A DNA stretch of 64,000 nucleotides from Alphaproteobacteria bacterium (lineage in GTDB: Bacteria > Pseudomonadota > Alphaproteobacteria > RF32 > CAG-239), in assembly GCA_017444525.1 (NCBI GenBank), contig JAFSWL010000022.1, forward strand, positions 6,646 through 70,645. Direction: 5' to 3'. The notes below the pieces were generated by a model, which saw only the letters and a program-made list of their open reading frames with translations, had not been told where the DNA came from and ran no database searches. The translations under genes were made by a program, and so were the position numbers. Every line of letters begins with the position of its first letter. Position 1 is the first letter of the stretch. Of this stretch, positions 40,115 through 50,346 are shown in pieces.

Positions 40115-40303
40115 TTAAATCGTTTCCCAAAACCAATCCGGCACATTTTTAATCACGTCAAGTTGCATGCAAGCGCACGGCGACAACTTGAGCTCGTTGA
40201 CATCTTTACCGATACCGACGGCTTCCGGTTCATAATACGAACCAAACAAACTGCATGCCGACAGAACTAAAAATATAGCAAAAATCAAAAGTTTTTTATA
40301 CAT
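40115..40303 (-). CDS. small lipoprotein, VirB7-like by position
   Basis: 62 aa with signal peptide and lipobox LSAC. Located between two virB8 paralogs and upstream of virB9. Assigned by size, lipobox and position only. Confidence 0.5.
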   Translation of the reverse strand: MYKKLLIFAIFLVLSACSLFGSYYEPEAVGIGKDVNELKLSPCACMQLDVIKNVPDWFWETI

Positions 40304-40449: not shown

Positions 40450-41202
40450 TTATTCTCTTATTTCGCTTTGGCTGTATTTTATCACCGTAAACCCTATCGG
40501 ATTAAGTAACCTAGCCTTCAAAAGGCGGCGTTCTTCTAAATATACCGGTGTTACCGAGGCATTATAACGCACTGATTTCAATGTCAATGCTCCGGTATCA
40601 TTACGAGCGCGAGAGAGATTGTAAACGGTGAATTTTACCGACCAAACCGGAGAATTTTCACTCTCTTTTCCAATTTTATCGATATAAACCTCACTCGAAT
40701 ATCCGTTATCAAACATTTTTTCGATAGAGGCTGCATTCATTCCGACAAATTCCTTATATACGTCAGGCGCAGACATATATTGCACAATTCCGCCAGGTCC
40801 CCAGCGTGTCCGCATTTCTTGTTCATCATTAATCACGGTATTGCGCATGATAATATACTGACGCACATACATTTCGGTCAATTGCTTTTCCGACGACATT
40901 TTTTTATCAATAGGCTCATAGCGAACAGTAGTCTCCGAATCCTTTTGATTTATTATCAGCAGTGGTTCTACAACAATTTCGCGAGCCAAACGAAAAATGA
41001 CCAAAGTTGAACACAAGAAAAACGTCAGAGAAACAATAGTGCAAAAGATAACCAATCGTGAAAGCCAACGGAAATATATTTCTTTATTTGAAGTCTTTTC
41101 CTGTCTGACATCTTTAATAAAGTGCGGCTGATAACCGACATCTACTTTCCGCTTTGTATCAGTTATCAATATTTTTTTTGTTCCGTTTCCGAGCTGAACC
41201 AC
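40450..41202 (-). CDS. virB8: VirB8 family protein (paralog 2)
   Basis: Shares VEP, [FY]VRQY, EM..RW..GG, MS.P.VY and NP[VI]GFTV..Y....IRE with paralog 1. GTG start at 41202 (AGGAAAGGG RBS) avoids overlap with the upstream gene and gives 250 aa, identical in length to paralog 1. The ORF-track start is 41292. Confidence 0.8.
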   Translation of the reverse strand: MVQLGNGTKKILITDTKRKVDVGYQPHFIKDVRQEKTSNKEIYFRWLSRLVIFCTIVSLTFFLCSTLVIFRLAREIVVEPLLIINQKDSETTVRYEPIDKKMSSEKQLTEMYVRQYIIMRNTVINDEQEMRTRWGPGGIVQYMSAPDVYKEFVGMNAASIEKMFDNGYSSEVYIDKIGKESENSPVWSVKFTVYNLSRARNDTGALTLKSVRYNASVTPVYLEERRLLKARLLNPIGFTVIKYSQSEIRE

Positions 41203-41227
41203 TTTTTTTCCCTTTCCTACAAAAATA

Positions 41228-44200
41228 TTAATGAGGATATACCGCGCAATACGGACGTGCAAACTGTTGTAAGCGACGTTCACGTTCTTCATCTTGTCTT
41301 TCAGCGGTCTTTTGAGCTATATCCCAATCGGCTTTTGCCGTTTGCATTTCTTCGAGCATATCGGTTTGTGGATCCCAAGAACCGTCAATTGTAACCAGAT
41401 CGCCAGGATAATCCGGAATCAACTCATTTCCCTCGCTATCCATCTGGTATAACAAAGCACGTCTGGTGATATCGGCCACACGCTCTTTGATGGCATTGAC
41501 TTCATCGCCGTCACTAAAAGTACCGTCAGGATTCTCAATGGTCGTAGTCATTTTGACTTCACTTAATTTATTTAATGCTGCAGTAATGGCTTTTTCTTTT
41601 TCCTCAGTCAATTTATCACGAAGCCGTTTATAGTCTTGTTCATTAGCCAAATCAAATTCCTCACCGAACACAAAATCAGTCTCTATCAGAGTTTCCGCAA
41701 GTTCCAATTGAGTGCGCTTAAGATCTTTTTCAGAATTAAGAAGATTATCGGCGGTAACCCTCATAGTTTCTATTTGGTTTAAATAATCTCCCAACTGATT
41801 ATTTTGTAATAACACGCGCGAGGCTAAATTTTGCCGTGAAGTACCTTCTTCATTTCCTTTTTGGCCGTAATCTTCATCATATGCAGACAGGGCATGCACC
41901 AATTCATTATTATAGGTTAGTCGTAAAATTTCAATTTTCTGCGATTTACAGGCCTTTTCTTCACATGACAGATTGCCGCCGCAGCTTTTTTTAGCCGCGT
42001 TGCAAACACTTTTATTAACTTCATACTTTGTCTCCGTATAATATGTCAGAATATTACCGATTTCACTGGCTCTACGCGGACTAACCCAGTCTGAAGCATG
42101 TTTTCCATGCAAAGCAGAAGTTTCTTTATCAAACACTCTCTCGCTGACATGGCGCAAAGCCTGACACTCAGGCACCCCCATAATAACATCTGTTATAGGT
42201 GTCGCAGCATTATACGGCACAGTAGAATATTCCATCCAATCAGGAGGAACCAATGACGGAATATACGTCTGTTTCGGCTCATTCGGATTAGCCGAGCCTA
42301 AATTCTCCGGCTTTTGCGGCTGCTGCAAATCAGCAATTTTACCGGTTGTGTACTGTAAATCACTGTTAACATCAATAAATTGCTGGGCAGGTATTCCCGA
42401 AGATTTACCGTTTTCGTCATAAATAGTCCGCCCGCTGAGGTTTCCTGCCGAATTATATTCAGGCGAACGGCACGGATAAAGACCAGAACGACGAATCGAT
42501 TGCCTTGCACTTAGTGTGCGCATCTGTTCTTCTGAAGTACCGTCTTGCCTGCCTATAAGTTTTTTCAAGTCAAATGAACGTTGAACATAGGTATGCGGTT
42601 TCAATATCCATTTCCATACTTCAGGCACCGTAGATTGTTTAATGCTGTCTTCACCTCTTATATAGTCTTCCGGTGATTTTATCTGCGTATTAGGAGCACC
42701 TCTTAAAAGATCTTCTAAAAACAGTCTTTGACTCAAAAACATTTTGGTATTTTCATTAATACTTTCTTCATCTCCTTTATAATATTTCGAGATTGAAGAA
42801 AAATCGTAATGATCAAAGTAAAATACCTCTCGCATAGGAGCCGAAGTAAACCAATCCGGCGCGCGCGGTGCGGCAAAGTCGTGCGGTAATCCAACAATGC
42901 CGACGAAAAATGCGTCATCTTCGTTTACGCAGAAATCATTGGCACAAATACCGGCAAGAAAGTTCAATGACACGAAAGAATTGCCTTCACTATCGGTAGT
43001 TTCCCCACAAGATGCAATATCCGACGGCGACACACTGCTGATTTTATTTATTAAATCAGCATGAATTGCTTTAAGTTTACCATAATTGCCGGGCATGTAT
43101 ATCTTGCCGGTATCTTGTAACTCAGTCTTAATCTTTTCTTGTGCTTTTTCAATTTGTTCCACAATATATTGACGAGCGCAGCTCATTACCGTAGAAGCAA
43201 TTTCAGCAGGTACAATTTTTGTAATGGCTTCTTCCGGAGTAATAAAACTTCGGCGAGCTGCACGAATCGAAGCAATCAATGCCGCTGTTTCTCGCATTTC
43301 TTGAGCTTCGGCATCACTCATTTGTTTAACATATTCACGCCGAGCCTGATCCAATCTGGCATCAATTTCCTCTATCAATTCTTCCCTTTCTTTTATATAT
43401 TCTTCTATATCCGATGTCTCCAACAACACTTCATCCTTGGTAGAATTTGCTTTTTCCTGCTTAGCTTCTGCTTCCTCTTGCAAATTCTTGTAATTCTGCG
43501 TTTGCGGCATTTCATCAATATCGACATCATCTCTGTTGGCTTTATCGTATAAATCTGCATTATAATCAAGCCCTTTTTGGGAAACATCTATTTCTAAAAT
43601 AGCTTCATTAATATCGCGATTAGCTCGATTATATTTGGCATTTAATTTACTTAATTTCTGGCCTGCTTCGTCTTTTTCAGCAACACGTATTTCCCTTTCC
43701 GTCTCATCTTTCTTGATTTTTGCCTCGTATTGCGCCTTTATTTGTTTAAATATTTTCTCATAATTTTCAATCATCTGATTAATTTGGCCTTCTTCGTTCT
43801 TGAAATAGTCTTGCACTACGGAAGCACTATCTTGTCCGTTTCCGGTACTACTGCCACTGCCAGACAGTCCACTGACCACACCAGCAGCAAAATTCGATAA
43901 CAACATTTGAGTCGGAGCCGTCATAATGTAGTCTTTCATGTTTTCATATTTGCCGTTTATATATTGGTCATAAAACGCCATTTGATCATTCCATAGCGGG
44001 AATTTACGCTTTCTTTTACCAAAATGAACTGTGCCACTGTCATCCAAACCAAAATCCAAATCTCTGGCCACATCTTTCATAACTTCGGCACCTACAGCCC
44101 AACGCATAATACTTTCTTCCTGTGTATCGCTCAACTGTCCTTTTTCTGATTTTTCATCTTTAACTGTGGGCTGATTGCTTTTATCTTCCGGATCTCCCTC

Positions 44201-46351
44201 ATAATCTTCTGGGTTGGCTTCCATATCACTTTTTTTATTGCGGTAATTGTCATCAACACTTTCGATACTGTCGCGCTCAGTTACATAAACGCGTGAAGAT
44301 TGCTCTTCTTCGTCATCTTCATCCTGTTGTGTATCGAAAGTTTGCTCTTCATCATCCGTCCTGCCGGTTTCAGATTTATAAAATTCCCTATATTTGGCTG
44401 CTTTAGTTTTATCAGTATTATAGTCCAAATCCTCCGCATCTGAAGATATAACAACATGGGATGAGTAATCGGCACCCTCGCTGGCATCGGCTTGGATAGT
44501 GATAACAGGCTCTTCATCATACTCATATAAAGCATTGCCGTCAATAGCAGCACGGTATAAATCAACCAAATACTGCATTATACCGCCCTTAGACGAAGTT
44601 TCTACAGCATCAGGACGCTCCGGAAGCGGTTTATCTTTCGATTTACCTGTGCTGTTTTCCTCATCTTCTTCGGTTATTTCCTCCTCGTTTAATAAATCAA
44701 TAAATTCATCAATGTTGATGACATAGCATTTTTCAGAAGAATTATCCGGACATGCCACATCCATTAAACCGATAGATTCCGATGTATCCGTAAAGTCTTT
44801 GTTTTTGGTATAATGGCAAATAACTCTGCCGGACGGAGTGGTTTTAGCCGCATCTTCAAATTCGGTCATACAATCATTGGGGCCGTACCACACTTTATCA
44901 GTTTCATAGTAATAAGGTTTAAGCATATTCATTGCGCATTCACCCGAACGAACAACCATTTGTCTGCTGATGTTATGCAATCTCTCAATATAATGATGCG
45001 TTTTATATAAATCCAAATATCCGGGTAAACGCATCAAGGCATTGTGCATCATCTCGGCGCGTTGCAAATCTTCTTCGGCAGCGGCAATACTTACCAAATC
45101 ATCAAAATTATCTCCTCTGGTGCCAAGCACGTGTTTATAATCTTTAGCACCGTTGCTCAACTCAAAATCACCGCTTAACAAATCATTTTCATCGTCGAAA
45201 ATTGCCTGATATTTTTGTATTTCTTCCTCGGCATCACGTTCTTCTGCCGACATATCTGCAAACATTACGTCAGCCGTAATTTTTACCGAAACAACCTCAT
45301 TAATCCGATTCAACGGCTGATTTAAGGAAGAAGTTTTGTCCCCACCGTTTTCTATTTTTTCTTTGTCCTCGTTATATTCTTTAATTTTAGCAATATTGGA
45401 AATACTGTTTACAGAACGATATTGCGCCAACATAGCCACCAAAAATTCATTATAGCGCATAATGGTATCATATAATGTTTCCGCCTTAATCGCACTATTC
45501 CAAAAGCATACCATATCTTCATTTTTCTTGTTGTTTCCAAAACCAATATCCGTATTTTGAATACTTTCACCACGGTCGCCGCCTTCGTCCGTACTGCCAT
45601 TACATGAAGTTACCTTAATATAATCGCAGAATTGATTTGCAACCAAGCATCTTTCATAGAGTTTTAGTTGTGTAACAATTCCCAAATCTTCCATAGGAAC
45701 ACCTTTTAATTTAGATTCTACCGCGGCTATATTCTCGGTATCGTCTCCTTCCGGTATAACTAACGGTTCTCCAAACAATTCAATTTCTTTGCCTGCAAGT
45801 TCCTTTTGCATTTCCTTGGCTATTATATACATTTCCAGAGTTGTATCAAGTTTAAGCTCTTCCCCCTTCTGAGCATATTCGTACTTGGTCTTGTTATTCT
45901 CGGAAGGATATTGAAAAAACAACTTAATAAAAGCTTTTTTAACCATATCTTCTTTATTGACATCAACTACTCTTTTAACACCTTTAGAATCGGTAACAGT
46001 CGTTTTCTTACAATCTTCGATGGTACGGGAATAAGAAATGATCTTTTGTTTTTTCTTTTCTGGTTGCTTTAACATGTTCAAAGAACTTTTACCCATCATA
46101 ACACCATATTCTTTAGCCAATTGTTTCATTCGGGTTATATCGGTAAAAGAATCAAGCATTGTCTTATTTACAATAACTTCCTTAATTGAGCTGGTCAAAA
46201 TCGCCGCTTCCGACGGACCGCCGGTCAGATTGGCCTGAGGCACAGGTCCAGGAACGGCCGGTGCCGTATCAGGTATAAAAGCTGATGCGGTACTGCTGAT
46301 GAAAGAACTGATAAATAAAATTAATAAACTTTTTTGCAACATGTTCATCAT
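41228..46351 (-). CDS. 1707-aa secreted T4SS-locus protein of unknown function
   Basis: Signal peptide (LLILFISSFISSTASA), no further TM helices, strongly acidic low-complexity region (aa ~555-730), long coiled-coil region (aa ~840-1000) and many Cys. Sits between the virB4 and virB8 blocks. Confidence 0.7.
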   Translation of the reverse strand: MMNMLQKSLLILFISSFISSTASAFIPDTAPAVPGPVPQANLTGGPSEAAILTSSIKEVIVNKTMLDSFTDITRMKQLAKEYGVMMGKSSLNMLKQPEKKKQKIISYSRTIEDCKKTTVTDSKGVKRVVDVNKEDMVKKAFIKLFFQYPSENNKTKYEYAQKGEELKLDTTLEMYIIAKEMQKELAGKEIELFGEPLVIPEGDDTENIAAVESKLKGVPMEDLGIVTQLKLYERCLVANQFCDYIKVTSCNGSTDEGGDRGESIQNTDIGFGNNKKNEDMVCFWNSAIKAETLYDTIMRYNEFLVAMLAQYRSVNSISNIAKIKEYNEDKEKIENGGDKTSSLNQPLNRINEVVSVKITADVMFADMSAEERDAEEEIQKYQAIFDDENDLLSGDFELSNGAKDYKHVLGTRGDNFDDLVSIAAAEEDLQRAEMMHNALMRLPGYLDLYKTHHYIERLHNISRQMVVRSGECAMNMLKPYYYETDKVWYGPNDCMTEFEDAAKTTPSGRVICHYTKNKDFTDTSESIGLMDVACPDNSSEKCYVINIDEFIDLLNEEEITEEDEENSTGKSKDKPLPERPDAVETSSKGGIMQYLVDLYRAAIDGNALYEYDEEPVITIQADASEGADYSSHVVISSDAEDLDYNTDKTKAAKYREFYKSETGRTDDEEQTFDTQQDEDDEEEQSSRVYVTERDSIESVDDNYRNKKSDMEANPEDYEGDPEDKSNQPTVKDEKSEKGQLSDTQEESIMRWAVGAEVMKDVARDLDFGLDDSGTVHFGKRKRKFPLWNDQMAFYDQYINGKYENMKDYIMTAPTQMLLSNFAAGVVSGLSGSGSSTGNGQDSASVVQDYFKNEEGQINQMIENYEKIFKQIKAQYEAKIKKDETEREIRVAEKDEAGQKLSKLNAKYNRANRDINEAILEIDVSQKGLDYNADLYDKANRDDVDIDEMPQTQNYKNLQEEAEAKQEKANSTKDEVLLETSDIEEYIKEREELIEEIDARLDQARREYVKQMSDAEAQEMRETAALIASIRAARRSFITPEEAITKIVPAEIASTVMSCARQYIVEQIEKAQEKIKTELQDTGKIYMPGNYGKLKAIHADLINKISSVSPSDIASCGETTDSEGNSFVSLNFLAGICANDFCVNEDDAFFVGIVGLPHDFAAPRAPDWFTSAPMREVFYFDHYDFSSISKYYKGDEESINENTKMFLSQRLFLEDLLRGAPNTQIKSPEDYIRGEDSIKQSTVPEVWKWILKPHTYVQRSFDLKKLIGRQDGTSEEQMRTLSARQSIRRSGLYPCRSPEYNSAGNLSGRTIYDENGKSSGIPAQQFIDVNSDLQYTTGKIADLQQPQKPENLGSANPNEPKQTYIPSLVPPDWMEYSTVPYNAATPITDVIMGVPECQALRHVSERVFDKETSALHGKHASDWVSPRRASEIGNILTYYTETKYEVNKSVCNAAKKSCGGNLSCEEKACKSQKIEILRLTYNNELVHALSAYDEDYGQKGNEEGTSRQNLASRVLLQNNQLGDYLNQIETMRVTADNLLNSEKDLKRTQLELAETLIETDFVFGEEFDLANEQDYKRLRDKLTEEKEKAITAALNKLSEVKMTTTIENPDGTFSDGDEVNAIKERVADITRRALLYQMDSEGNELIPDYPGDLVTIDGSWDPQTDMLEEMQTAKADWDIAQKTAERQDEERERRLQQFARPYCAVYPH

Positions 46352-46364
46352 TCCCTCCTAGTCC

Positions 46365-47648
46365 TTAAAAGAAGCCTTTTATTTTGTTTTTAAGACCATC
46401 CTTAAATTTATCTTTGGTCTGATTTTTAAGTTTTGCCAGTAAATCTTCTTTAGTCAGCAAATAATCGTCGAGGTTAAACTTGGTAAAATCTTTGTCATAA
46501 TCGCGAAGTCTGTATTTGTTTTTCCACTTTATCATTTCGCTTGTGGTTTGCAATTGCATCATTGCCAGCATAATTTCCAAATATCCGGCGGCGGCAATGG
46601 AATTTTGCAATTCAACACACTGACGCAAGCCTAATGCTCCGAATACACCATCTGCTTCCTTTGTAGAAGCGTCTGCGCAGGCAACGCTGTGTTCATTGGT
46701 GGTTGTTATACTATCCCTAGTAACTACAACTGTTTCCAAAGCATTTTTTATTGCGTCATAATATTCACGATTGCGTTCATCCACAACACGTTGCACATTT
46801 TGTGGGTTATCAGTCTCATCTTCGCGCAAAAAGAGTTTGCTGATGGCTGTTTCATATATTTCGTCTTCTTCTTTATTTGGATCAATACCGAACAACTCCA
46901 TTAATTCTGTTTGCATCAGCGCTTGAACTTTATCTTCTGATAATTCAGCTGATGCTTCCTCTATTTTCTTTTTCAATTTATTCATTTTACGTTTGGTTTT
47001 TCTCACTTTACTTGTTGTCATAACATCTTTTTCATCGTTTTGTTTGATTTGCAAGGCCATATCGGCAATAGCTAAATCCAATGCATCCAATTGCGCCACT
47101 CTTTCCGGTGTAGATTCCTGTTCAATTAAGGAATCAAGAGCACTCCGCTGTGATTGCAAAAGTACCATTTGCTTCTGCATGGCCATTTTCTTATTCAATT
47201 TTTCTTTTTCTTCGGCCTCGATTGCATCATTCATTTTCTTTTCCCACTCATTATATTCTTGAGTTAGTTCTCCCAGTTGACCTGTCAATGCCTCCATCAA
47301 ACCCTTTGTAGAGTAATCACTGGCAGCATATTGACCTTTCGCTACATCTACAGCAACGTCCGCCGATTTTTTCAAGATTTTTACATACAACTTTTCACTT
47401 TCATTATCTTTCGGTTGCAAAGTTTTTCCATTCAGCTTTTCCATAATCGTTGCCGTCATACCTTCGTCATTTTGCATATCTTTCAGGATTTTGGTACCGA
47501 TATCGGTTATGATTCCGGAAATGGAATCCAAATAAGCCAGTGCATACACCTGCGGTGTATATAAACTCAAGGCACAGCAAATATATATAACAAACAGAAA
47601 TATTGATATTCCGCTATTTTTGATTATTGTTCTCGTCGGCTTTCTCAT
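46365..47648 (-). CDS. secreted or anchored coiled-coil protein (427 aa from the chosen start)
   Basis: Start placed at ATG 47648 (AAGGAG 5 nt upstream), overlapping the upstream gene by 35 nt. One N-terminal hydrophobic segment, and the rest is helical and charged. The ORF-track start is 47732. Confidence 0.6.
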   Translation of the reverse strand: MRKPTRTIIKNSGISIFLFVIYICCALSLYTPQVYALAYLDSISGIITDIGTKILKDMQNDEGMTATIMEKLNGKTLQPKDNESEKLYVKILKKSADVAVDVAKGQYAASDYSTKGLMEALTGQLGELTQEYNEWEKKMNDAIEAEEKEKLNKKMAMQKQMVLLQSQRSALDSLIEQESTPERVAQLDALDLAIADMALQIKQNDEKDVMTTSKVRKTKRKMNKLKKKIEEASAELSEDKVQALMQTELMELFGIDPNKEEDEIYETAISKLFLREDETDNPQNVQRVVDERNREYYDAIKNALETVVVTRDSITTTNEHSVACADASTKEADGVFGALGLRQCVELQNSIAAAGYLEIMLAMMQLQTTSEMIKWKNKYRLRDYDKDFTKFNLDDYLLTKEDLLAKLKNQTKDKFKDGLKNKIKGFF

Positions 47649-48759
47649 CTGCGTTCTCCTTGTTGTTTTTCTCTTTTTGCTGTTTATAATACTTTTGACC
47701 TTCGGCGAATGCCTGTTCCGAGAGGGCATCATAATTCCTATTATTGGCGTTATCGTATGCGTTTTGTCCGGCTTCTACTTTGCTTGATACTTTGCTGATT
47801 GTTTTGGCAACTTCCGGATTATATTCCGGACTTCCTGAATAAATATCCGCCATGGAATTAAAGGCTGAAGAGAAATCTTTGCGTTTAATGGCATCGATGC
47901 CTTTATTAACCAAATTTGTTACATCGCCTAAAGTTATACCGTTTGAACCGTATTGCGGTGTTCTGACACCATGTTCTTTCAATTTTTTAACAGTTTCTTC
48001 TGTTTTTTCACCGAGAACATCGGCTGTATCGTCAAGACGAACCCTATTCGCGCGCTCTTTCAAAATATTGGAAATATGAGAGGATTCAAACAATAACACA
48101 TTCAACCAACGATTATTGGCACGCCGCATTACCACACCGTAGTTCCATTCTAATTCCATAATATCTTTACTTGAGTTTTTAGCTTCTTTAGGTCCCCTTT
48201 CGGCATCTGACTTAGAAAGCTTTTTTGATTCATCTTGTAGCTGTTTGCGCGTAACCAAAGCATTCGCGTAATCAATTGCCAAATTTTCAATCGTCAGATT
48301 ATTCATAGACACATCCTTAGCTACTGATACTTGAACATCGTTATCAATGTGTTTTTTCTTAAAATAGGACATAAGCACCTGACGCTTGGTCATCGGCGAA
48401 GTATATTCACCGCAATCGGTCGCAGCATCAATCCCCGGCCATTGCAAGTTGCTTATCTTTGTATTAAAAAATTCAGAATAATCTCCGGTGTCAATAAATT
48501 TACGAGCTTTTTGAGCGCCGTTTAGAACTTTTATTGCCGTACGTGCTAAACCTTTGGCCTTTTTTTGATTTTTGGTATCGGTGGTTTTTTCCTGCAAATT
48601 GACTTGTCCCTTAACATTGTCATTAACATATAAAGATACGTCTTCTTCGCCGATTTCCACACCTCCGATAAAATCCTTAATAAAATCAAGCTCTGCAGCC
48701 GCGTATTTCGGTAACAGAAGTCCGATGACAATTATAAATGTCGCTATATATTTTTTCAT
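47614..48759 (-). CDS. secreted protein (381 aa)
   Basis: Signal peptide MKKYIATFIIVIGLLLPKYAAA and GGAAGGAGG RBS. No family recognised. Confidence 0.65.
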   Translation of the reverse strand: MKKYIATFIIVIGLLLPKYAAAELDFIKDFIGGVEIGEEDVSLYVNDNVKGQVNLQEKTTDTKNQKKAKGLARTAIKVLNGAQKARKFIDTGDYSEFFNTKISNLQWPGIDAATDCGEYTSPMTKRQVLMSYFKKKHIDNDVQVSVAKDVSMNNLTIENLAIDYANALVTRKQLQDESKKLSKSDAERGPKEAKNSSKDIMELEWNYGVVMRRANNRWLNVLLFESSHISNILKERANRVRLDDTADVLGEKTEETVKKLKEHGVRTPQYGSNGITLGDVTNLVNKGIDAIKRKDFSSAFNSMADIYSGSPEYNPEVAKTISKVSSKVEAGQNAYDNANNRNYDALSEQAFAEGQKYYKQQKEKNNKENADEKADENNNQK

Positions 48760-48789
48760 CCTATCCTCCTTCCGTTGCCGTCCTATATA

Positions 48790-50346
48790 TTAGTTCCAAT
48801 CATTGCAACTAACAGATAAACCGTAGTCTCGTTTTACTTGAGCGCAAGCTTGTCCAGAAAATACGGTTGATGCTGCTTGATTCAATATATTAAGGTAATA
48901 CTGTGCATCCTCTTTGATACCAGCCGCAGTGTCAGGATCGTTTATTAATGATGAATAGCGATTATAAGCTTCAACATAAGTTTCTTGCGACATACCTTTA
49001 GCCGTAGCCAAATAGTTATCGTCGCGGCTGCTTTGCTGTTCTTTCTTCTTGACTTGTTCAACTTCAGTCAAGCGATCAAGAGCTTTTTGTGCATTGGAGA
49101 TTTCTTTGTCTGTTGCATCGGGTGCATTCATCGCTGCCGTCAAATCTTGGCGCAATTGTTCAACCTCATCCTGATGCGCTGCGAAATCCTCGGCACTCAT
49201 TTTTTCATACGCATCTATTTTGCTTGAGCCATTGACTATAACCTCTTTCAAAACCGTACCGCCATTCTTCTCAACCAAATCGCAGGCACCCTCGTAACAC
49301 TCAAAAGTTTCGCCTGTCTTGGCACGATATACTCCATCAGGGCAAGCGCCGGTTTTACCGTTGATTTCACACTGATTGCTGCCAAGGAATGTGCCGGCAA
49401 CCGTACCCTCATCTCCGTAATCGCCTTCTTCAGAAGTGCCTAATTGTCCTTCTTCATTTGATTCTTCTGCTTCGTCTTTCTCAGCTTTGTCTTTTGCAGA
49501 AGCATCCGGGCTTTCCGGTGTAATACTGGTTTCGTTGCTGATAACACCGGAATCCGTCTCGGTTGAAGCAGAACCTTTTACCGTGGTTTTACTGGTAGCA
49601 TATTCAACATCGCTTAATATTGCCGAAGGATCTATGTCCCTGATAGCATCAATTGCCGTATATTTGAGATTCTCTGCATATAATTCCCGCAAATTATTTA
49701 TTATATCCGTAGCAAACGCATGTGCATTGGTAAGTGCCCCCTCAGTATCACGCTGAGTGTTGGATTTTGCCGTAGCGGTGGAATAAGCATTTTGCGTTTC
49801 GTTGTAATTAATCACACTTTTTAATTTATCGGTTGCTACCGTAAGCGTATCATTAAGTGCCTGATAACGCATTTCATCATAATCTTTCAACCCTTGTTCT
49901 CTAATGGCGGAGTTGTCGTTATTCATAGCTTTAACGTATTTTTTGATACATTCCTCAATTTTACTTAAATCTTTGGCAATGTCTTCGGCATTTACTTTGC
50001 AATACATCATCATTTTTTGCGGAAATAGCGGACGATCATGATATAAATTGCTGTATTTCACATCTTCGGCTTCTTTTTTGGCCTCTTCATCAGCTTTTGC
50101 CGTTGCATCTGCTTCTGCCGGATTTGTCTTTGAAGCATCGGCGGAAACACTGGCGGAACCGCCTGAAGATTTGCCGTTTGAGCCGTTTGCAGCATAACCA
50201 AATGTTGTTTCCTTGGATGCTTGCCCGTTATTATAAGTTATCGTATCATTTTTAACTTCATCGCCGGAAAAGGCCGCCGATGCATTATATAACATTATAA
50301 AAGCACTCAGTATAAATATTTTCAGTAAACTATTTTCTTTTATCAT
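48790..50346 (-). CDS. secreted protein (518 aa) with helical N-half, acidic linker and 4-Cys module
   Basis: Signal peptide; Cys326/335/350/355 cluster (nt 49282-49371). No TM helices and no family recognised. Confidence 0.65.
   Translation of the reverse strand: MIKENSLLKIFILSAFIMLYNASAAFSGDEVKNDTITYNNGQASKETTFGYAANGSNGKSSGGSASVSADASKTNPAEADATAKADEEAKKEAEDVKYSNLYHDRPLFPQKMMMYCKVNAEDIAKDLSKIEECIKKYVKAMNNDNSAIREQGLKDYDEMRYQALNDTLTVATDKLKSVINYNETQNAYSTATAKSNTQRDTEGALTNAHAFATDIINNLRELYAENLKYTAIDAIRDIDPSAILSDVEYATSKTTVKGSASTETDSGVISNETSITPESPDASAKDKAEKDEAEESNEEGQLGTSEEGDYGDEGTVAGTFLGSNQCEINGKTGACPDGVYRAKTGETFECYEGACDLVEKNGGTVLKEVIVNGSSKIDAYEKMSAEDFAAHQDEVEQLRQDLTAAMNAPDATDKEISNAQKALDRLTEVEQVKKKEQQSSRDDNYLATAKGMSQETYVEAYNRYSSLINDPDTAAGIKEDAQYYLNILNQAASTVFSGQACAQVKRDYGLSVSCNDWN

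Follow-up and report, generated by a model that had tools for sequence, protein, structure and literature searches.

Our understanding of type IV secretion systems (T4SSs) rests mainly on a few plasmid and pathogen systems. In the Cag system of Helicobacter pylori, an expanded machine, the Sec-exported core-complex subunits Cag3, CagM, and CagT are encoded within the T4SS locus, have no known homologues in other T4SSs, and occur beside CagY, a giant, repeat-filled homologue of VirB10 that is several times larger than normal. Pertussis toxin is a Sec-dependent T4SS substrate of the Ptl system. The rvh T4SS of Rickettsia lacks VirB5 only (Gillespie et al. 2009, PMC2653234). Here, we analyzed a 64,000-nt stretch of DNA (contig JAFSWL010000022.1 of assembly GCA_017444525.1; hereafter ‘the window’) from an alphaproteobacterium of the order RF32, which carries a T4SS operon with an oversized open reading frame (ORF) directly upstream of virB8. 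This ORF, which we call the giant, occupies 41228..46351 on the minus strand (1707 amino acids (aa), stop codon included) and is intact in four independent assemblies. The giant has a fixed operon position, occurs together with the machine in more than ten families, is under purifying selection, keeps its hairpin length within narrow bounds, and, like all its homologues, carries a Sec signal; on these grounds we see about an even chance that it forms an integral structural subunit, particular to its lineage, of a distinct VirB-type (rvh-like) T4SS. The kind of secretion system is known; the giant's protein family is new and has no curated Pfam or NCBIfam model, and literature searches returned no description of this T4SS or of the family.

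A protein family that accompanies virB8

A word-based search returned 13 relatives of the giant, later 18, and a hidden Markov model (HMM) scan of 1.84 billion representatives yielded 308 clusters, 175 of them with E-values below 1e-30. Among the matches listed, full-length relatives measured ~1050–1855 aa and had an architecture like that of the giant. Within the window's order—whose genomes measure 1.0–2.0 Mb and whose named loci stem from metagenome-assembled genomes (MAGs) of rumen and gut—273 of 283 genomes (215 of 219 high-quality ones) and 23 of 24 genera carry the family, with one copy per genome. Nine of the ten giant-less genomes of the order, including one that is 100% complete, were also devoid of VirB9; the giant therefore comes and goes with the machine. 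Three genomes of the order (G210, G056, and G194; 100%, 95%, and 92% complete) possess neither the giant nor VirB9, so the T4SS is dispensable in a few lineages.

Gene order is equally constant. In 21 of 21 fetched loci, three VirB2 genes are followed by the gene for a 147-aa protein (o147), VirB3, VirB4, a variable set of exported proteins, the giant, VirB8a, VirB8b, VirB9, and VirB10. Searching the whole class with a profile of the giant's C-terminal part gave matches in six genomes outside the order, and a profile built from those six extended the family to 16 outside genomes of 0.9–2.5 Mb, belonging to ten families. These homologues are ORFs of ~440–1020 aa; the ones examined were mostly 527–630 aa long, with two at 811 and 973 aa. 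The T4SS context was identical in 11 of 13 loci fetched from outside the order: the short-form gene lies directly before VirB8a–VirB8b–VirB9–VirB10 (the latter with beta-flower repeats) or is the last gene of a VirB2–VirB3–VirB4 islet. VirB4 identity across these distant loci is only ~60%.

Alignment of giants and short relatives with hhalign gave a probability of 99.0% (E 4e-18) across 171 columns at the C-terminus, among them the terminal cysteine motif. An HMM of 29 giants matched five short or mid-size relatives with full-sequence E-values of 4e-21 to 5e-27, in three colinear domains each, corresponding to giant residues of about 410–500, 715–810, and 1520–1700. The signatures of these blocks are a helix with the pair HN followed by Cys and Trp; the string W..G..WG..FPLW-x-DQ..Y..KY; and NRIS-x-YL...FDL-x-K-x-x-DY. 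Reciprocal genome searches agree on the family membership of giant and short forms, whose homology we regard as secure. Given the three shared colinear blocks, the giant is a conserved core of ~500 residues that was enlarged in the window's order. In the alignment, the short forms lack residues 25–400, the acidic linker, the hairpin, and most insertions of the middle region. We thus read the giant as an enlarged member of a wider family (usually 527–630 aa) accompanying virB8 in one T4SS clade, and its size as a lineage-specific elaboration comprising an extended N-terminus, an acidic loop, the inserted hairpin, and insertions in the middle.

These results refine an initial annotation of the gene, made from the DNA letters without database searches, which had described an otherwise novel sequence and proposed a surface-exposed adhesin, a tip, or a secreted substrate encoded in cis. 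The protein has no characterized relative, but it is not unique, being the expanded form of a wider pre-virB8 family. That it is a Sec-exported, obligate companion of the T4SS stands, given strict synteny in 21 loci, order-wide presence, and co-loss with VirB9; its elaboration within one lineage had been missed.

VirB10-type beta-flower repeats occur in the linker of two members (P0035, residues ~612–858; P0125, residues ~470–536) and match the N-terminal half of the window's VirB10 (blastp E 3e-17). These repeats show an exchange of modules between the giant's family and the giant VirB10, and the shared module suggests that the family resides in the same compartment as the VirB10 repeat region. 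The family further has an invariant cysteine 4–9 residues from the C-terminus, with a long tail beyond it in one member and an extension in P0010 too. The long-tailed member, a 973-aa protein (L051; G441:C90), carries the motif SGCPLY followed by an acidic stretch and a Gly-Thr tail of (GTT/GST)n with a weak Pfam collagen match; the cysteine motif thus need not end the protein.

Architecture, export, and integrity of the giant

The giant begins with a Sec signal peptide (residues 1–24; 46280..46351, minus strand, as for all segments below) composed of a lysine-containing n-region, a hydrophobic core, and the cleavage site ASA|F. It is the only hydrophobic segment of the protein, which has neither a lipobox nor a transmembrane span beyond it, leaving a mature protein of ~1683 aa, ~191 kDa, and pI 4.6. 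A signal peptide is present in all homologues: it was N-terminal in 19 of 19 intact homologues from related loci, and every family member examined combined a Sec signal with the absence of a transmembrane span.

Behind the signal peptide follows an N-terminal extension (residues 25–400; 45152..46279), which is mostly helical, specific to the order, absent from the relatives of 527–630 aa, and modeled by AlphaFold2 (AF2) with a predicted local distance difference test (pLDDT) score mostly below 50. Core block A (residues ~401–540; 44732..45151) is common to all short relatives (HMM domain E 1e-7 to 1e-16) and displays a conserved helix with H436-N437, the invariant C472, and W488. An acidic linker of variable length (residues 541–750; 44102..44731) measures 79–210 residues among homologues; its residues 551–750 (nt 44102–44701) contain 60 Asp or Glu against 22 Lys or Arg, a net charge of -38, in keeping with the extremely acidic stretch that the initial annotation had placed at nt ~44160–44690. 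Core block B (residues 751–840; 43832..44101), delineated by alignment and HMM, holds the family's best-conserved motif, W751..G754..G778..FPLW787-x-D789-Q..Y794..Y797..GK801-Y802-x-N804. An antiparallel two-helix hairpin (residues 841–1035; 43247..43831), predicted by AF2 and missing from the short relatives, is inserted next. The helical and alpha/beta middle region (residues 1036–1500; 41852..43246) harbors several order-specific insertions and the conserved positions H1097, F1149-V-G, D1158, R1174-E1175, D1180, P1243/W1246, C1294, and C1396. Core block C (residues 1501–1707; 41231..41851), recognized by hhalign and HMM, consists of a helical domain—with N1518-Q-x-G-D-x-L, F-D-L-x-N-x-x-D1573-Y1574, and D1638—and a C-terminal tail, P-Y-C1702-x-x-Y. 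For the C-terminal 968 residues (740–1707), AF2 reached a pLDDT of 72 and a predicted template modeling score of 0.67, and the model comprises a helical base, the long hairpin, the alpha/beta middle, and the helical C-terminal domain.

The hairpin helices, residues 839–937 and 949–1035, are each ~95 residues long (AF2 pLDDT ~75–93) and would measure ~14 nm if straight. Hairpin length was confined to 185–208 residues in 29 homologues despite ~25% identity, and the tip is charged (KANRDDVDIDEMPQ). Here the initial annotation had seen a heptad-like coiled coil. Two long antiparallel helices are indeed predicted, but heptad periodicity was not significant on the single sequence; only family-averaged hydrophobicity revealed a best period of 3.55 in both arms, which was reached by 0 of 500 shuffles for arm 2 and by 11% for arm 1.

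Cysteines are scattered through the giant, as had been noted, and number 21. Invariant or nearly so within the order are C472, C512 (28 of 29), C1294, C1396, and C1702; across the whole family, only C472 and C1702 are invariant. The simplest reading would be a C472–C1702 disulfide that links the C-terminal tail to block A. The giant's own genome, which is 86% complete, encodes two DsbA-like (PF13462) proteins. The host is an anaerobe, and its exported T4SS proteins contain many conserved cysteines.

With respect to known relatives, searches of Pfam and NCBIfam with the giant, 14 close, 33 diverse, and 6 short members gave no match, except for sub-threshold beta-flower repeats in two family members. 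Sequence and profile searches of the PDB (four profiles) returned only coiled-coil noise (tropomyosin, SMC, apolipoprotein), and Foldseek searches of PDB and BFVD with the AF2 model of the C-terminal part gave no match at E<0.01, retrieving generic long helical hairpins (SH3BP5, SMC, AhlB, colicin E9). In line with the initial annotation, no recognizable catalytic or known domain emerged from Pfam, NCBIfam, PDB, or Foldseek, and the giant is apparently non-enzymatic. ClyA-family alpha-pore-forming toxins (AhlB, SmhB, MakA) were discarded: their Foldseek matches (E 0.2–1; TM score 0.11–0.15 by query length) cover the hairpin only, whose charged tip differs from the hydrophobic head or beta-tongue of the ClyA type. 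An autotransporter or outer-membrane beta-barrel adhesin was likewise set aside, as the C-terminal 200 residues are predicted to be helical and no Pfam autotransporter match was found.

Comparison with a 95%-identical orthologue gave a ratio of nonsynonymous to synonymous substitution rates (dN/dS) of 0.11 overall and of 0.04–0.23 by segment. Near-universal in its order, the giant is under purifying selection. In one strain pair, the window and its 95%-identical relative L009, the interval ~45540–48759, covering o381, o455, and the giant's first ~270 codons, shows a DNA identity of 83–87% with a dS of 0.6–1.4 and a dN/dS of 0.04–0.11, compared with 93–97.5% identity and a dS of 0.07–0.26 for the rest of the operon. 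This interval has the appearance of a recombination tract. Over 45751–48885, related strains from three further runs also had no contigs at >=90% identity. A general hypervariable region at the giant's N-terminus was rejected, as the divergence appeared in this single strain pair and not in others.

The gene tops the ORF sizes of the T4SS locus, ahead of ORFs of 1413, 1385, and 1355 aa, and was rightly singled out as its largest. Thirteen nucleotides separate the stop of the upstream gene (46365–46367) from the giant's first ATG. The ribosome-binding site AGGAGG (46354..46359, minus strand) lies 2 nt from the first and 5 nt from the second ATG; given this short distance and the start of the 95%-identical orthologue at the second ATG, the true start may be that one, one codon further on. 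At the other end, the TAA stop (41228–41230) precedes the virB8 GTG (41200–41202), with GGAAAGGGA upstream of it, by exactly the 25 nt counted in the initial annotation. No promoter or terminator signals above chance were found in the operon, including the 13-nt and 25-nt gaps flanking the giant.

Mis-assembly was ruled out. Logan contigs from four runs are colinear on the giant with zero indels and one substitution, a single 45.6-kb Logan contig covers the entire gene, and the giant is a single ORF in 19 of 21 related loci, which also excludes an origin by gene fusion. Two MAGs have the homologue in two ORFs, 719 + 976 aa at L009:10001-15054 (G007, apparently L009) and 352 + 1100 aa at L021:10001-14270 (G020, apparently L021), reflecting either assembly frameshift errors or true splits. 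A fusion of separate genes is further contradicted by the core, which matches the short relatives in colinear blocks; stand-alone N-domain proteins were not found within reach of our search. Internal duplication was dismissed as well (N- versus C-terminal half, hhalign probability 4%). Neither homology to a non-T4SS family nor any sign of a fused or mis-assembled ORF came to light in these comparisons.

Placing the giant in the secretion machine

The operon extends from 56390 down to 28256 and starts with three VirB2 genes, the gene for the 147-aa protein, a VirB3-like gene, and VirB4. Between VirB4 and the giant lie five exported or anchored proteins without a known family (234, 262, 518, 381, and 455 aa), none of which is a paralogue of the giant; the last of them, o455 (46365..47732, minus strand), is N-terminally anchored or exported. 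Downstream of the giant follow two VirB8 genes, VirB9 with a SPOR domain, a 1413-aa beta-flower protein, a 1385-aa VirB10 carrying the same repeats, and VirB11. The first virB8 paralogue (virB8a; 40450..41202, minus strand) starts with GTG and encodes 250 aa, compared with 251–258 aa in its homologues. A mechanical call of this ORF (40450–41292; 280 aa) places an ATG within the giant's 3' end; the GTG start with its own GGAAAGGGA fits the homologues.

An unlisted gene for a 62-aa lipoprotein (40115..40303, minus strand) lies between virB8a and virB8b; it encodes a lipobox, LSA|C, in the context MYKKLLIFAIFLVLSA|C..., followed by the invariant ELKxSPCAC...PDWF. It recurs in 21 of 21 related loci (55–100% identical) and in seven distant ones, and by size, lipobox, and position we classify it as VirB7-like. 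The RvhB7 gene of Rickettsia occupies the same place (PMC2653234). With this gene present, the giant is no stand-in for VirB7, nor does its signal peptide, which ends in ASA|F, offer the cysteine of a lipoprotein. VirB9 has one conserved unpaired cysteine (C334) that could pair with the VirB7-like lipoprotein.

Elsewhere in the same genome (C41:1403-15161; L034), tandem genes encode polytopic proteins of 829, 853, and 482 aa, two with weak TrbL/VirB6 matches (17–28 bits); next come proteins of 701 aa and 1317 aa, the latter a membrane protein with an M23 peptidase domain. The arrangement resembles an rvh-style VirB6 array at a distance from the operon. VirB1, which the operon does not encode, may be substituted by the M23 protein. 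The giant itself does not qualify as VirB6/TrbL (PF04610), having no transmembrane span beyond its signal peptide. A VirD4 coupling protein (PF02534, E 5e-41, 739-aa ORF; C49:145175-146788, L035) is encoded ~75 kb from the operon on the same contig. As VirB6, VirB7, and VirD4 are all present in the genome, the giant replaces none of them. VirB5 (PF07996) had no match anywhere in the genome at E<=1.

Fixed position, near-universal conservation, retained hairpin length, and a dN/dS of 0.11 are more readily reconciled with an integral part of the machine than with a substrate encoded in cis. As a structural subunit, the giant would be exported by Sec and, we infer, remain in the cell envelope. 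The three-block core (~401–540, 751–840, and 1501–1707) would be the part needed by every T4SS of the clade, most likely docking on the VirB7/VirB8/VirB9/VirB10 portion of the machine, with the tail cysteine C1702 probably linked to either C472 or a partner. In the window's order, this core would have gained ~375 residues at the N-terminus, a flexible acidic tether, a stiff hairpin of ~14 nm after block B, and insertions in the middle. These additions may protrude from the docking site, acting as a strut or spacer beside the oversized, repeat-filled VirB10.

Several observations weigh against a structural subunit. No solved T4SS component resembles the giant in structure or sequence. The AF2 model of residues 25–560 is poor (pLDDT 52), which renders the Foldseek result for the N-domain meaningless. 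The giant evolves 2–3 times faster than VirB8, VirB9, and VirB10 (tree lengths of 7.8–11.7 versus 2.9–4.1, and pairwise identities), and rapid evolution is also usual in surface or host-facing proteins. Rate covariation among 16 taxa was weak: the N-domain and VirB4 gave a rho of 0.48 (p 0.009, uncorrected) and the C-terminal part and VirB9 no significant value, a result that is at most suggestive and not used as support here. A search of the 86%-complete genome turned up neither DsbB nor VKOR, making the proposed disulfide uncertain. As to expression, the sole runs not labeled as DNA are of unknown type and contain short, low-depth contigs of related strains.

A distal, surface-exposed element, namely a VirB5 substitute at the tip of a stalk or pilus or an adhesin, is the main alternative, which we hold tentatively. 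The core would then bind VirB2 or VirB6 while hairpin and N-domain reach for a target cell. This would suit a genome that, like Rickettsia with its rvh system, yields no VirB5 match (at E<=1) and in which VirB6, VirB7, and VirD4 are accounted for elsewhere; the giant combines export with a largely helical makeup, its gene is located between virB4 and virB8, and a pilus is suggested by the three VirB2 paralogues. Its faster evolution relative to the core subunits points the same way, but dN/dS shows no sign of diversifying selection. Likewise, the recombination tract swaps the first ~270 residues and two upstream genes between two 95%-identical strains, but this N-terminal hotspot of divergence is confined to one strain pair. 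No sequence or fold similarity to VirB5, TraC, or CagL was detected: PF07996 gave no Pfam match, PDB profiles came back empty, and the best CagL hit in Foldseek had an E of 4.4 on a low-confidence model. The giant is exported as VirB5 is, but with 1707 aa (core 527–630 aa, more than twice the size of VirB5) and a position five genes from virB4, it is a poorer candidate by size and place than the 234- and 262-aa exported proteins directly after virB4. In a bolder version, which we consider unlikely, VirB5-less alphaproteobacterial T4SSs would have their missing distal module in this family: its core would replace VirB5 on top of VirB6, and in the window's gut and rumen order the 14-nm hairpins of many copies would build a long helical tube or stalk. 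Such a structure would, if real, amount to a novel type of T4SS conduit or tip that acts with the giant beta-flower VirB10.

It is quite improbable that the giant is a secreted substrate, brought to the periplasm by Sec and then released through the T4SS, as pertussis toxin is by Ptl, toward a possible eukaryotic or bacterial target. Like many effectors, the protein is large, acidic, rich in coiled coil, and of no known family, and its gene resides in the T4SS operon. But substrates recruited by VirD4 are cytoplasmic and have no Sec signal, which every member of this family carries, and we rejected a VirD4-recruited effector on that ground. The near-universal, fixed position over the order and ten further families is unlike typical effector repertoires, and hairpin length is constrained. 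The tail is conserved, with its cysteine 4–9 residues from the end, and in several short relatives it takes the form C-P-V-L or C-P-I-Y, resembling a CaaX box; this is not general, as the cysteine-to-end distance varies and one member has a long tail.

We find little to recommend a third option, an assembly factor or cell-wall-remodeling enzyme in a VirB1-like role that forms no permanent part of the machine. The operon is without VirB1, and the conserved blocks abound in aromatic and acidic residues (W787, D789, Y794, Y797, K801, Y802, R1174, E1175, D1180), as do some glycan-binding sites. Yet Pfam, NCBIfam, PDB, and Foldseek revealed no fold or motif of a lysozyme, transglycosylase, or peptidase, and a lytic transglycosylase was excluded by the same four resources (no SLT or lysozyme match); the M23-peptidase membrane protein beside the VirB6-like genes, on another contig, is the better candidate. 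Hardly tenable is a periplasmic protein without ties to secretion that only accompanies the operon: synteny is kept over at least ten families at a VirB4 identity of only ~60%, the gene is lost together with VirB9 in nine genomes, and each genome has one copy.

Comparison with described systems

An entire order of abundant, uncultured Alphaproteobacteria from gut and rumen, along with ten or more additional families with small genomes, has the T4SS clade described here as core equipment. The giant is an obligatory exported component of this clade, with no recognizable relative among solved T4SS structures. The short, ancestral-like forms of 527–630 aa are a tractable target for structural biology. 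The family is a candidate for the VirB5 function, which seems to be missing here and in rvh systems generally. The impression of operons devoid of VirB6 and VirB7 is corrected by the VirB6-like genes elsewhere in the genome and by the VirB7-like gene, which is present but unannotated.

In having a Sec signal and a gene inside a T4SS operon, the giant resembles the substrate of the Ptl system; it differs by the absence of AB5 subunits or similarity to them and by the conservation pattern of a machine part. VirB5-type minor pilins (VirB5, TraC of pKM101, TrwJ, and CagL) likewise share with it a signal peptide, a helical nature, and a gene between virB4 and virB8, and VirB5 is the only canonical VirB function for which no gene was found in the giant's own genome. 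Unlike them, the giant has no PF07996, PDB, or Foldseek match, its core measures 500–600 aa rather than ~220 aa, and its gene is not beside virB4.

The Cag T4SS is alike in that a lineage-specific exported protein is encoded in a T4SS locus and that the window's VirB10, too, is giant and repeat-filled. But no Cag chain in the PDB resembles the giant in sequence or fold; the giant is far larger at 1707 aa, bears a predicted 14-nm hairpin and an acidic tether, and belongs to a family that spans many alphaproteobacterial families instead of a single genus.

Likenesses to the rvh T4SS include a duplicated virB8 whose second copy, virB8b, directly follows the VirB7 lipoprotein gene, several VirB2, and no VirB5, as well as scattered genes, with tandem VirB6-like genes elsewhere and VirD4 apart. 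The two differ in that the list of 18 Rvh components, on which this comparison is based, has no giant-like protein (PMC2653234), and in that the window's VirB10 is giant, split, and filled with beta-flower repeats.

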